64,000 bases of DNA. Source: Octopus vulgaris. Its lineage: Eukaryota. The position numbers and the translations under genes were made by a program. The stretch covers positions 62,496,001 through 62,560,000 of the forward strand of contig OX597816.1 in NCBI GenBank assembly GCA_951406725.2, read 5' to 3'. The notes under the pieces are model-generated. The model was not told the DNA's origin. It made no database searches and saw nothing but the letters and a program-made list of their open reading frames with translations. Of the stretch, positions 17,793 to 64,000 are shown in pieces. Each line of letters opens with the position of its first letter. The first letter of the stretch is position 1.

Positions 17793-18560
17793 AAATGGCA
17801 AGAAAACCCTCTCTATGGCAAATACCCAAAGAGAGCAAATAATGCAGATATTGACAAAGCCCTGACCCATCAATGACTAATGGCCTCTGGCTTAAAATCT
17901 GAAACAGAGGGGTTTATCATAGCAGCTCAAGATCAATGCCTACCAACAAGAAACTACCAGGCCAACATATTAAAGATCAGAAGCAGTCCAACGTGTCGTG
18001 TATGCCAGCAACAAAATGAAACCATTGACCATGTGGTCTCCAAGTGCAGTCTTCTAGCGCCTACAGAGTATCTCAACAGGCACGATAGAGCTGCACAATA
18101 TATTCACTGGGTAATCTGCAAAAACCTGGATTTGCCCCATGAAAAAAACTGGTGGGAACACAAACCACCCCCAGTGCTTGAAAATGACCACATCTCACTC
18201 CTCTGGAACTTCACCATTCAAACTGACAGAAAGATAGATGCAAATAGGCCAGACATCATATTGAAAGACTTCAAACAAAGAACATGCCTCCTCATTGATA
18301 TGACTGTCCCAATCGATATAAACGTATCTGTCAAGACCTACCAAAAACTGAGTAAATATAAAGATCTTGAAATAGAAATCAGCAAAATGTGGAACCTGAA
18401 GACTAAAACAATACCTGTTGTCATAGGTGCCCTGGGAATGATAGCAAAAGGGGCTGATAGCTACCTAACTCAGATACCAGGAAACCCAAAAATGGCAGAA
18501 ATTCAAAAGATAGTGCTCATGGGAACTGCTCATATCCTACGCAAAAAACTTTCTATGTAA
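17793..18560 (+). pseudogene. Zinc finger plus restriction-like endonuclease region of the RLE LINE (ORF 17880-18560 open, in-frame TGA at 17874)
   Basis: Frame continues upstream as KWQENPLYGKY...HQ*LMASGL, where the stop replaces a conserved Trp. Confidence 0.85.
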
Positions 18561-31073: not shown

Positions 31074-31492
31074 GGCGCAGGAGTGGCTGTGTGGCAAGTA
31101 GCTTGCTTACCAACCACATGGTTCCGGGTTCAGTCCCACTGCGTGACACCTTGGGCAGGTGTCTTCTACTATAGCCTCGGGCCGACCAAAGCCTTGTGAG
31201 TGGATTTGGTAGACGGAAACTGAAAGAAGCCCGTCGTATATATGTATTATTTTTTTATGTGTGTGTGTGCGTGAGTGTTTGTGTGTCTGTGTTTGTCCCC
31301 CTAGCATTGCTTGACAACCGATGCTGGTGTGTTTACGTCCCCGTAACTTAGCGGTTCGGATAAAAGAGACCGATAGAATAAATACTAGGCTTACAAAGAA
31401 TAAGTCCTGGGGTCGATTTGGTCGACTAAAGGCGGTGCTCCAGCATGGCCGCAGTGAAATGACTGACACAAGTAAAAGAGTAAAAGAGTAAA
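31074..31492 (+). mobile_element. SINE B, full length, young
   Basis: Closest to the consensus of the window's copies. Confidence 0.93.
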
Positions 31493-39600: not shown

Positions 39601-39637
39601 GATGCAGGAGTGGCTGTGTGGTAAGGAGCTTGCTTCC
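39601..39637 (+). mobile_element. SINE B head, left part of a split copy
   Basis: GCAGGAGTGGCTGTGTGGTAAGGAGCTTGCTTCC, continuing at 41089. Confidence 0.85.
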
Positions 39638-41088
39638 GTGCATGCGTCACTCAGGGTGCACTTGGTTTGTCGTTTGTGTGCGAGGTTTTTTTTGGGGGTG
39701 ATGTACAATATATATATTTTTTGGGGTGATGTACTCAGGGGTGATGTACTCAGGGGTGATGTACTCAGACTTTAGCCTGCCTGAGTTGTCTTCAGCAGAG
39801 GAGGAGCTGGTAAGAGCGGTCATAAAGATGGACGGAGTGTTGGAGAAGACAAGAAGTTTTGCTGAAGCCACGGAGATGAAGCGAAGGGTGTTGGATTTGG
39901 CTGGCCTGAAGATGTATGAGATAATGGTACAGAAGGTGGGAGGTGACGTGAGGATGTCGCTCCCCCCAAGGCATTATGGAGCGGATGGAGAGAAAACCGA
40001 TCACCTATAAGGTGTTCTCGTTAAAAGGAAAAAAGGCCGAGCAGGTGGAAACTGAAACAGAAAAGACGCTAAGGGAGCGGTCAAAGAAAATAATATACAT
40101 AACTAAAGGAAGGAGATATGGAACAATGGTCGTCCAATTTAGGACAGTAGATGAGGCGAAGAGGCTGGCGAGTGTGGCGGTGAAAACAGAGGAAGTAGTG
40201 CTTCTGCTCACATACCTTGGAAGATGAGGGTAGAAGCAATCCCACCTGATATAGAGGTGGCTTGGGCGGCGGCGGCTGTCCTTGTTGGAAGTGAGGAGAA
40301 AGTGGCTGTCCTTCAAGCCACTGAAACAGAAGAAGGAGGGTGGAAAGGGAAGACACTAGAATTAAATATACAGACGGAGGACAACTGGAGAGTTTGGAAG
40401 AAACGGTGACATTGGGGAAGATTGTGCTGAGAGTGTGGGTAGAAGGCAGAGTACCACATTGTTTCAAATGTGGCCAAAAGGGCCACATTAGAGCATACTG
40501 CCCTCTACAGAGGACAATAGCAGAGGAAACAGTTGTGGAGACGGAATAGAAAAGAGAAGAAAAGAAAGACGGAGGAAAGGAGGAACAGGAGGAACAATGG
40601 AGAGTAATAGAGAGTAGAAGGAAGAGAAAAAAGAAAGAACAGTGAGTATGACGTGGTACCCCAATCAACTCCATCCCACCCAAGACCAATCGGACCCACT
40701 CTCCCCATACAGACACCAAACCCACCCACCCCGTTTCCCCACAGGAAAAAAAGAGCATATAGCTCAGAATTTAGAAGAACTCTCTCCCGGTGGAAAAGGT
40801 TACGAGAGAGTGCAGTCATGGAACGATAGTGGAACTGGAACAGAGACTAAAAGGAAATTAGTACTCAGAGGCGGCAAGTTGTGTTGCTCAGTGTTGGGTG
40901 ATTAGCATACTCTTCATATTTTCAACTATCACGCATGTTAACATTATTTTAATTTGTTTTTCATGTTCATTTTCATGTTTCATTCATAATATTATGTTTC
41001 ATTTTTATATGTTTTTAATGTTATATGTCCCCACATGTGTTGTAGTGCCCCCTGTATGTAATGCCTTTATGGAAGAAATATTGAAATA
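39638..41088 (+). mobile_element. ORF1-only (gag-like, CCHC knuckle) non-LTR element with Tx1-like 3' tail
   Basis: Frameshifted ORF1 with RVWVEGRVPHCFKCGQKGHIRAYCP, no EN/RT, tail TGTAATGCCTTTATGG..GAAATAAA, imperfect 15-bp TSD. Confidence 0.8.
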
Positions 41089-41647
41089 AAGAAACTTGCT
41101 TACCAATCACATAGTTCCGGGTTCAGTCCCACTGCGTGGCACCTTGGGCAAGTGTCTTCTACTACAGCCTTGGGCTGACCAAAGCCTTGTGAGTGGAGTT
41201 GGTAGACGGAAACAGAAGGAAGCCCATTGTATATATATCGTGGAGTAATTCATTCATGAAGAAATGATTTGTACGTTCTGTCATATATTAAGCATGAATC
41301 GTTTAAATGTAGAAGGAGTGAGAGTGAAGGAACAATGAAATATTTTCACCTGAATACTGTGAAGTAATTATATCGAAAGCAAAGTGGGAACTGGAAGGTA
41401 GCAACATGTCGAAATACCACTCATCGTATGTGTGTGTGTATGCATTTGTGTGTCTGTGCTTGCCTCCCCCCCAACATCGCTTGACAACCGATGTTGGTGT
41501 ATTTACGTCCCCGTAACTTAGCGTTTTGGCAAAGAGTAGGAAAGGATAAGTACTAGGCTTGTAAAGAATAAGTCCTGGAGTCCATTTTTTCGGCTAAAAG
41601 GTGGTACTCCGTCATGGCCCTAGTCAAAAGACTGAAGTAAAAGAATA
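41089..41647 (+). mobile_element. SINE B, remainder of the split copy, with a 179-bp insert in its microsatellite
   Basis: CTTGCTTACCAATCACATAGTTCCGGGTTCAGTCCC onward. Confidence 0.88.
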
Positions 41648-56387: not shown

Positions 56388-56619
56388 GGCGGCGACCTGG
56401 CAGAAACGTTTACACTGCGGGTGAAATGCTTTGCAGTATTTCGTCTGCCGCTATGTTCTGAGTTCAAATTCCGCCGAGGTCGACTTTGCCTTTCATCCCT
56501 TCGGGGTTGATAAATTAAGTACCAGTTACGCACTGGGGACGATGTGATCGACTTAATCCCTTTGTTTGTCCTTGTTTGTCCCTTCCATGTTTAGCCCCTT
56601 GTGGGCAATAAAGAAATAA
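56388..56619 (+). mobile_element. SINE family A, full length
   Basis: A box TGGCAGAAACG, B box GAGTTCAAATTCC, Tx1-like tail. Confidence 0.92.
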
Positions 56620-61347: not shown

Positions 61348-61523
61348 TTTTACTCTTTTACTTGTTCAGTCATTTGATTGTGGCCATGCTGTGGCACCGT
61401 CTTTAGTCGAGCAAATCGACCCCCAGGAATATTCTTTGTACTTATTCTATCGGAACCTTTCGCCGAACCGCTAAATTACGGGGACGTAAACACACCACCA
61501 TCGGTTGTCAAACACACAAACAT

Positions 61524-61554
<31 letters not shown>

Positions 61555-61564
61555 ACACACACAC

Positions 61565-61644
<80 letters not shown>

Positions 61645-61789
61645 AATACAACGGGCTTCTTTCTGTTTCCGTCTAACAAATCCACTCACAAGGCTTTGGT
61701 CGGCCCGAGGCTATAGTAGAAGGCACTTGTCCAAGGTGCCACAAAGTGGGACTGAACGCGGGACCATGTGGTTCGTAAGCAAGCTACTT
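61348..61789 (-). mobile_element. SINE B whose head is interrupted by the Tx1-like LINE
   Basis: On - strand it resumes at AAGTAGCTTGCTTACGAACC right after the LINE tail. Confidence 0.9.
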
Positions 61790-64000
61790 TATTTCATAAA
61801 TATTTGCCATGAAGGCATTACAAAGAGGGGACGAACAAGAACAGACAAACATAAAAGGGTGAAGTAGCTGTAGCGATTAAATATTACAATTTAAAATTAA
61901 CAATAATTTGATAAATATGTTTATATCTTTTGACTTAAGCGTTGCTCATTACAAATGAAATTTGTAATGGTTTCTCTGAAGGATAGGCATCCGACCATCA
62001 GGGTAGACCCCTTGCTTTTTCTTTCCTGTTTTTGGCTTCCACTTACCTGGTGCAAAACACTCCCAGCTTCCTCGCCACAGGCTTCCATCTTCTCATGAAT
62101 CTGTCTCGTGACAGGTACCTTTTCTCCAGCCTGATCTTATTACTGAGGTGGTAACTAAAAAAGTTAACCAATCCCTGGCCGTATATAAAGGCACCCGACA
62201 CTATGCCTCTCACACACGTCTTCCATACTGTTTCTTTCAGTATGGCTACTATGCAGAAAAAGCAAGACTTCCTTTCCCTGTTAGGGGAAGGGGGAGGCAC
62301 AATCTCGATGATAGATTCAGCTGATAGCTGTACTCTTCGCATCGATGACAACAGTTGCTTTACGAAAACTATCAGTCCCGTTAATTCCGGACACTCCACA
62401 AATGCGTGCAGGACGGTTTCCCTGTCCTGCCCGCACCTCGGACATGTCGGCGAGACGGCACTTCCGTGCCATGACAGTTTATCACGAGCAGGTAACGCCG
62501 CACAGAAGCACTGCCAAACCAGAGATTTTTGGTAATTGTACAGATACCCCGGCCCGAAAGTTCTCCGGAACATGTTGATTAACTGATTTTCATCGTAGTC
62601 CATGGTCTCTCCTAAGGCCTCATCGGACTTAACCTCCACTAACCCGCTATAGAAATCCGCGGTGGAACTCTTGTTGCCGGCATTGCCCGCCTGAGAGAGT
62701 AGCTGAAGTGCCTGGCGGCACTCCAACTACCAGTCCTCCAGCCTAGGTCTCTGCTTGATCCAATTACCAATGTCTGTTAAGGACGTTAATTGCGGAAGGT
62801 AGAACTGAACGTGCGGTGACCACACCAGCTCTCCATCCAGGTAAAGCTAGAGGTGCCTCAACCTTAACGCGAATTTTCGCATCCTCAGCCAAGGCATCCC
62901 TAGCCCACTCTTTAGCGGTTTCTGGCAGCTGACAGAGCGCTTCACGAGTGGTTTTCCTCCCTTCCACAAAAAGTGGAAAAGGATTCTCTCCAAATTGTTC
63001 AGCCACAAATCGGGGCAAGGTGATAACCGATGCTATAAACATCTGCACCACCTCCGCCTTTCCTGGCAAGGATAACACCCGCCCAGACCAGGTCTGGGTT
63101 AAAGCAATCACCTTGCTGGCCACCTCACCCCAATTTTTCTCTATCTGGAGGTCTGGCTCGAACCAGACTCCGAGCAGCTTAACAGGACCTTCCGTTCAAC
63201 GCCCCACGACGTTATTGGACGGCATCGGCTTGCTCCTCCAAGTGCCGAGCTGCAAACCAATTGACTTGTCCTTGTTAACCTTTGCTTCTGCCACTGCCTC
63301 GTAACTTGTGATAGCTTCTTCCACCACTGGAACCTGGCCTTCATCCGCTACGATGATGGATATGTCATCTGCGTACGCCATAGCTCCTCTTCCACACCAT
63401 AGATCATGCAGTGCGCCCCCTAGTGCCTCCAACCTCCGCAATAATGGCTTGAGAGCCAGTATATACAAAAGCGGGGACAGGGGATACCCCTCACGCACTG
63501 AGCGCTCGATCCTGAATGGCTTCGAAAGGAAACCATTCATTTTTACGACGGACTCGATGTCGCTGTACAACGCAGCAAACCATCCCCGGAAGGACCGCCG
63601 CCAAGTACTGATGGTCGACCCTATCGAATGCCTTAGACTGGTCTAAATGTACCAGTGCCCCCCCACCTGCGCCTGAAAGCTTCCCCACCCTCTCTAAGGA
63701 GTAGCGTATACGGTGGAGATGGTCATGAATCGTCCTACCCGGGATAGCGCACGTTTGCGTTTCCCCGACAAGTTTGTCCACGACCCGCGCCAAACTTTTT
63801 GCTAGCACCTTGGCCATAATCTTTAACTCTGTGTTCAACAGAGTTATGGGCCTCAAGTTCCCTATCTCGTCCCCCTTGCTCGAGTCCTTCCTGATCAACG
63901 TCACCATCCCACGGCTCGCAGATTGGGAATTCCCCCATTCTGCTGCCAAGTGGCGTAGACGCTGGCCAGCAAGTGCCCGAACAAGTCTGGCATAGTTTTG
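61790..64000 (-). mobile_element. Tx1/L1-clade LINE (ORF2 pseudogene plus 3' UTR), runs off the window
   Basis: RPITLLNTELKI, LDQSKAFDRVDH, GYPLSPLLY, YADDI, LLGVWF, CPRC..ETVLHAFVEC, several frameshifts. Confidence 0.92.

Follow-up and report, generated by a model that had tools for sequence, protein, structure and literature searches.

Our analysis points, with considerable confidence, to a LINE lineage of the L1/Tx1 group in Octopus vulgaris that sits in the tRNA-like head of SINE B, at a single base just past the A box, in roughly 90% of the copies sampled; there its own endonuclease likely recognises and nicks the target, priming reverse transcription. Two insertions lie in the 64,000-nucleotide stretch of DNA analysed here (the window), and from these a sequence-only reading had proposed that a Tx1-like LINE uses the SINE head as its landing pad. 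The 3' junction and the orientation are fixed, the host SINEs are independent of one another, the target is duplicated over up to 15 bp, new copies enter the regenerated site in tandem, one branch is young and intact, and ORF1-only passengers occupy that site too.

The LINE copy in the window, assigned to family A, runs on the minus strand. Its 3' junction at 61790/61789 is as the sequence-only reading had it, with GAAATA followed directly by AAGTAGCTTGCTTAC and then by the SINE B body. The features of this copy and its host are:

61350..61774 (ends approximate), minus strand: remainder of the host SINE B (B-box region, body, microsatellite and 3' module)
61775..61789, minus strand: 3' copy of the 15-bp target-site duplication, AAGTAGCTTGCTTAC (from the sequence and genome-wide tail flanks)
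61790..62042, minus strand: LINE 3' UTR, ending GAAATA, without poly(A) (sequence read)
62043..64000, minus strand: decayed ORF2 of LINE family A, from the RT to the C-terminal zinc finger (Pfam RVT_1 and zf-RVT; tblastn and blastn against family C)

The ORF2 is 84% identical over 2.4 kb to that of a young, intact relative, family C, and a small hairpin motif, TGCC-N5-GGCA, is common to the tails of family A, family C and short elements. In the flanking genome sequence the element extends 1,053 bases beyond position 64000 (L061 3002-4054), and this part holds the beginning of the RT region, 165 bp of foreign sequence and the 5' UTR. The foreign sequence marks an internal deletion, with most of ORF1 and the endonuclease gone, and the copy measures 3.26 kb compared with 5.7-6.2 kb for full-length family A. 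At the 5' joint, where a SINE head and a duplication of ~15 bp had been predicted, the host SINE B head is present (L061 4055-4083), but the duplication comprises merely seven of the 15 bases (AAGTAGC). Because it is partial, the exact 24-mer of the prediction is absent beyond the window, even with up to three mismatches allowed. Family A elements also carry a T run ~20 nt from their start, where polymerase III transcription running in from the A box of the SINE could terminate.

The second insertion lies on the plus strand, and its claimed junction likewise proved correct: at 41088/41089 GAAATA is followed by AAGAAACTTGCTTAC, at the same SINE B position just past the A box. Upstream of the element, positions 39611-39637 hold the SINE head TGGCTGTGTGGT and then AAGGAGCTTGCTTCC, the latter being the 15-bp duplication with three mismatches. 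The features of this locus, with an empty target for comparison, are:

31074..31149, plus strand: uninterrupted SINE B head (empty target)
39601..39622, plus strand: host SINE B head, with the A box at 39611-39621
39623..39637, plus strand: 5' copy of the 15-bp duplication
39638..41088, plus strand: family B, a 1.45-kb ORF1-only element with a decayed gag-like ORF and CCHC knuckle (zf-CCHC above the Pfam cut-off), no ORF2, and a related 3' tail
41089..41103, plus strand: 3' copy of the 15-bp duplication
41104..41235, plus strand: host SINE B body, with the B box at 41120-41130

At both window junctions the insertion parts the A box of SINE B from its B box, as had been claimed. The description of the SINE B head as a landing pad holds for its sequence, with its fixed junction, and does not extend to promoter use; since the insertion displaces the B box, a LINE driven by the SINE promoter finds no support.

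The element at 39638-41088 had been regarded as a different one, but its ORF1 is 34-54% identical to those of families A and C and its tail is related, making it an ORF1-only derivative of the same lineage. No ORF2 match adjoins the family B tail or lies between the ORF1 matches and the tail, and the family also occurs as repeated 1.4-kb head-to-tail copies, each with 15-bp duplications. Judged by its coding content, family B is a HAL1-like ORF1-only passenger. A group of seven copies, family D (L182, L192, L194, L197, L202, L204 and L208), shares the first 16 nt of the young LINE, has related tails and occupies the same SINE B site; ORF1 matches are present in five of the seven and ORF2 matches in none, with 1.7-2.6 kb to the first tail where a tail was seen. 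Family D is likely a second ORF1-only lineage, and both would be copied in trans, probably via the tail they share with the LINE. HAL1 (half-L1) is, like families B and D, a non-autonomous LINE derivative encoding only ORF1, although it arose from mammalian L1 (PMC5753468), whereas families B and D derive from a site-specific lineage with which they have a common target. The 5' ends of families A, B and C look unrelated on related bodies (5' ends of L095 and L155; window 39638-39720), and 5' UTRs may have been swapped between them.

To tabulate flanks genome-wide, the 2.8-Gb genome was searched with the 3' UTRs alone, flank excluded, and the best 40 of 394 candidate tails were scored for family A and the best 40 of 251, with loci returned for 30, for family B, window copies included. 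The SINE B 15-mer follows in 38 of the 40 family A tails (35 with the SINE body after it and three with other sequence; two have neither) and in 26 of the 30 family B tails (24 with the SINE body, two with other sequence, four with neither), and two of these four exceptions still touch the site, via a deletion or a shortened duplication. Single-nucleotide targeting therefore holds well beyond the window, and far above background: a 15-mer match with up to four mismatches starts at 74 of 127,880 window positions, ~6 per 10,000, and nine of these 74 continue into the SINE body. Exact matching gave the same picture, with AAGTAG next in 51 of the 57 occurrences of a 21-mer from the family A tail. 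A pattern for young-type tails, which excludes T at position +16 and also catches some tails of short relatives, has 165 matches; the first 100 listed, counted by eye, comprise 92 in SINE B in sense orientation, two tandem, two SINE antisense and four other. All three samples (38/40, 26/30 and 92/100) lie above the 20% of flanks used in PMC4494074 to recognise insertion into a multicopy target.

The predicted SINE head and ~15-bp duplication at 5' ends were found in other copies across the genome. The young LINE's first 16 nt has 67 matches, all directly after target sequence, 58 of them behind a SINE head and nine behind another tail; 40 of the 67 loci were fetched, including the seven of family D. 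Exact tail-plus-target junctions number 705 genome-wide, compared with 78,523 exact intact targets. Only ~0.9% of exact heads are interrupted, so SINE B is a safe harbour for the LINE and not the LINE a brake on the SINE. As all these samples consist of best-scoring or exact matches, old copies are under-represented in them.

The same sequence after nearly every tail could also mean that the SINE body belongs to the LINE's own 3' end, as a composite or 3' transduction without targeting. Divergence argues strongly against this: across 47 young copies, mean divergence is 0.86% over the final 130 nt of the LINE and 10.6% over the 130 nt of SINE that follow, a 12-fold difference that identifies independent insertions, and LINE pairs only 0.09-0.2% apart sit in SINEs 2-12% apart. 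The sole result leaning toward a composite is that the distances of LINEs and of their host SINEs are weakly and positively correlated (rho 0.11, from pairs that are not independent). SINE heads also rejoin the element at variable truncation points. In the 40 family A copies, examined by eye at their 5' junctions, 19 join a SINE head directly, four have the duplication without a head (two behind another element's tail), four have short remnants, one lies off-target and carries a duplication of its own, and 12 lack a SINE head at the 5' end; ten of the 19 head-joined copies are truncated, each at a different LINE breakpoint, with duplications ranging from 15 bp down to small deletions. Variants private to one locus are present in both duplication copies of L079, L032 and L220. 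Finally, off-target copies lack the SINE; off-target copies L083, L117, L118 and L212-L216 have the GAAATA end and duplications of 14-16 bp, and most off-target flanks start with AAG or a near variant and show unrelated bases after +3. Variable truncation joints, SINE-free off-target copies and the gap between tail and host divergence together refute the composite reading, to which we attach almost no probability.

No clear duplication was found for L075, which, like the 12 family A copies lacking a head and the four with short remnants, counts against targeting. L211, considered as a further off-target copy, has no element upstream and was taken as a chance match. L215 and L216 (G000 C3:28525691 and C9:71553578) were inserted antisense to SINE B, where another TGGT/AAG occurs, and the duplication there overlaps the main one. 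At L167-L168 (G000 C9:2664539-2680886), three full-length young LINEs stand in tandem within one SINE B, with the duplication between each. Inverted structures also occur, with L062 showing the 5' inversion typical of twin priming and L221 and L082 showing head-to-head tails around a SINE site. When contigs from four public runs were compared with L166 in search of an empty site, they ended at a microsatellite short of the SINE head, and the joints derived from other intact SINEs; the young family is covered in all four runs, under two organism labels.

The young branch, family C, was found by a search with an endonuclease-containing frame. It is 5.44 kb long, with an ORF1 of 467 aa carrying a CCHC knuckle and an ORF2 of 1133 aa carrying an APE endonuclease, RT and zinc finger. 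Of 48 copies with both ends, ten have a full ORF2 and two (L155 and L157) have both ORFs intact. Across 42 near-full-length copies the median difference is 1.3% and the minimum 0.09%, and on this sequence similarity the branch looks recently active.

LINEs of the Tx1 clade encode, apart from ORF2, a gag-like ORF1 bearing a CCHC zinc knuckle. Here the 1133-aa ORF2 matches Pfam Exo_endo_phos, RVT_1 and zf-RVT (APE, RT and C-terminal zinc finger), and the gag-like ORF1, separate from it, matches zf-CCHC with an E-value of 4e-4 and 20.7 bits, just under the cut-off of 20.8; its Atlas neighbours have zf-CCHC and ZCCHC3-type RNA-binding domains. The best solved-structure match to the RT is LINE-1 ORF2p (E 1e-66), with R2 at 1e-19, placing it in the L1 group. 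The earlier description of the element as Tx1-like thus agrees with its architecture and RT group, and formal membership of the Tx1 clade is likely, while no protein named Tx1, Keno or Mutsu is among the homologues returned by the searches and the cluster look-up. The closest named relatives of the RT (P0003, P0268) are from Argonauta hians, at 63% identity, and the cuttlefish Acanthosepion pharaonis, at 50%, and many metagenome proteins are ~50% identical to it. Elsewhere in the window, a 227-aa open frame at 17877-18560 (plus strand) has a weak zf-RVT match and a PD..D-like motif, which we take to be, likely, the end of a restriction-like-endonuclease LINE.

Published octopus SINEs include OR1, OR2 and OK. 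ARAGORN and Rfam did not call the SINE B head as a tRNA. Aligned with the genome's own tRNAs, five SINE B heads score 49-54, whereas the highest scores among 200 shuffles of each are 38-45, and the A and B boxes keep their register in these alignments. SINE B was considered as the LINE's partner SINE and rejected, as it shares no tail with it; its 3' module scores 32. The tail is instead shared by a second tRNA-headed SINE, SINE A, of which the window holds one copy:

56388..56618, plus strand: SINE A copy, the last ~60 nt of which match the LINE tail

Here 42 of 58 aligned bases (72%) agree, with a score of 63 and a shuffle maximum of 48. The SINE A tail pattern has 104,871 matches. The SINE B site follows the SINE A tail in two of 97 local tails and in none of the first 100 listed; an internal site of SINE A's own head follows it in 39 of the 97 local copies and in ~54 of the first 100 listed, counted by eye. 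The latter arrangement gives tandem units of 184 bp that differ by 3-13% within one array (window 56388-56618, plus strand; L109 5940-7010 and L096 3400-4200, minus strand). These observations suggest that SINE A was repeatedly inserted into its own head by a sister LINE, with plain duplication as the alternative. The driver of SINE A is likely such a sister LINE with another target; among the fetched loci, no autonomous LINE ending at SINE A's internal site was found.

Target-primed reverse transcription is established for LINEs, and the anatomy of these insertions, as read from sequence, fits it. Because the 3' junction is fixed, the first nick would fall on the bottom strand at 5'-CTT/ACCA-3', with one or two bases of ambiguity owing to the run of A at the junction, and would prime copying from the GAAATA end. 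The second nick would be set by distance, at 15 nt, because unrelated off-target sites also yield a 15-bp duplication. Recognition likely extends beyond TGGT/AAG alone, because the opposite-strand TGGT/AAG of TT-type SINE heads was used two times compared with 92.

The 5' side of full-length young copies behaves differently, in that the 5' 'duplication' finishes with bases that follow the element and not the target. On this side all 16 such copies with a TT-type 3' target end in AAC, as is usual for the element, often carrying an extra T, and in L191 the target's private base is retained and the switch is confined to the last three bases. These junction bases make it likely that the RNA of full-length young copies starts with a few target-like bases, which would pair with the overhang of the top strand and take the place of the final bases in the 5' duplication. 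Heritable 5' junction alleles were considered and rejected, with the 16-nt variants unclustered on a tree of 42 copies (shuffles were as low in 187 and 500 of 500); the extra T therefore likely arises anew at each insertion, during joining. Neither a ribozyme (no Rfam match near the gathering score) nor strong structure (fold z-scores from -0.6 to 0.6) was found at the 5' or 3' ends.

Such junctions raise the question of whether the site is chosen mainly by RNA-DNA pairing, with read-through transcripts that carry downstream target bases annealing to the nicked strand and only a weak endonuclease preference. The lack of a poly(A) tail, the AAG or near variant that begins most off-target flanks and the 5' target-like bases that follow the element are all in keeping with pairing, as is an enrichment of the matching SINE subtype: 31 of 47 full-length young copies, about one third of them picked for a long ORF2, sit on the TAAC subtype, compared with 31,502 of 78,523 targets (40%; p = 0.0005). 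Over all young-type tails, however, a strong preference for one subtype is unsupported (TAAC 44/92, p = 0.14), and 48 of the 92 sense sites are on the TT and AAGAAG subtypes; off-target copies also stop precisely at GAAATA, and beyond +3 their flanks are unrelated. We consider pairing unlikely as the main determinant; it may assist, but it cannot place the nick. Less probable still is tethering, in which RNA polymerase III factors bound on SINE promoters would hold the LINE, much as happens to TRE5-A near tRNA genes, before it cuts at a short motif. The position of the site between the A and B boxes would suit tethering, and SINE A tandem units likewise begin between that SINE's own A and B boxes, but single-base precision in a single orientation would not, given that tethered elements land near their targets and not at fixed internal positions (PMC3706591). 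In addition, the LINE tail was present in none of 30 real tRNA loci examined, a small sample of eight isotypes, and new copies enter regenerated junctions without an A box, nine of the 67 5' ends following another tail. Recognition by the LINE's own endonuclease remains our preferred reading.

Mutsu and Dewa are members of the Tx1 clade, NeSL-related LINEs have a restriction-like endonuclease, and R2 5' junctions carry target-derived sequence. As in R2, the 5' target-like bases here follow the element rather than the locus, although they are few and no ribozyme was found; ribozyme processing in R2 is mentioned in PMC5035012 and PMC4494074. Known targets of the Tx1 clade include DNA transposons, LTR elements, U2 and microsatellites, together with 5S, U5 and satellites according to a figure legend (PMC4494074). 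Tx1-Mar and Tx1L (from crocodilians and Xenopus) offer a close likeness: both are APE-type LINEs of this clade that also prefer a site inside another interspersed repeat, form tandem insertions sandwiching a duplication, and share their target with non-autonomous passengers (SINEU; those here are ORF1-only instead). By analogy the octopus lineage would work like these two, although they land in DNA transposons (Mariner-N4, Tx1D, Harbinger) or LTR elements and not in a SINE head (PMC4494074). Keno (U2 snRNA), Mutsu (5S rRNA) and Dewa (tRNA-Leu spacer) likewise have a fixed 3' junction in multicopy small-RNA-type sequence (PMC4494074, PMC3706591, PMC4640811), but their targets are host RNA genes or spacers (for Mutsu and Dewa, see PMC3706591), whereas the octopus lineage targets a tRNA-like head of parasitic origin, which offers at least 78,000 exact sites. 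NeSL-1_TV, LIN15_SM and LIN25_SM also insert within tRNA-type sequence, but with NeSL-related enzymes and in real tRNA genes (PMC4640811), and sites of Dada DNA transposons cluster at the tRNA A box and anticodon, but involve a DNA transposase and real tRNA genes (PMC8869645, PMC3706591).

For Octopus vulgaris itself, a repeat annotation reports 13 recently active L1-Tx1 families, and the term 'target' is absent from its main text (PMC13282606). In the portions consulted, PMC8967140, PMC10294476, PMC5035012, PMC3747384, PMC3531059, PMC4758252 and PMC4824008 make no mention of a SINE-head target. Full-text literature searches turned up no LINE targeting a SINE head; one may be recorded in Repbase, Dfam or subscription journals, Kojima and Fujiwara 2004 among them, which lie outside those searches.

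Dispersed SINE heads are thus an addition to the targets of site-specific APE LINEs, and the precision, one base in ~90% of sampled copies, nearly equals what is seen in RNA-gene-specific families. How APE endonucleases gain a long recognition site becomes directly testable with the young intact copies, the natural off-target sites and the antisense look-alike that is rarely used. The shared tail ties the lineage to a second very abundant SINE and bears on octopus-specific SINE expansion. We tentatively put forward a wider picture, to which we give somewhat less than even weight, in which octopods host a still-active Tx1-type LINE radiation with tRNA-like SINE heads as dedicated landing sites, one branch cutting between the two promoter boxes of SINE B and a sister branch mobilising the 100,000-copy SINE A into its own head. 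If this is true, one LINE lineage drives a major octopus SINE expansion and also parasitises SINE promoters, with RNA-templated 5' junctions keeping the target regenerated.
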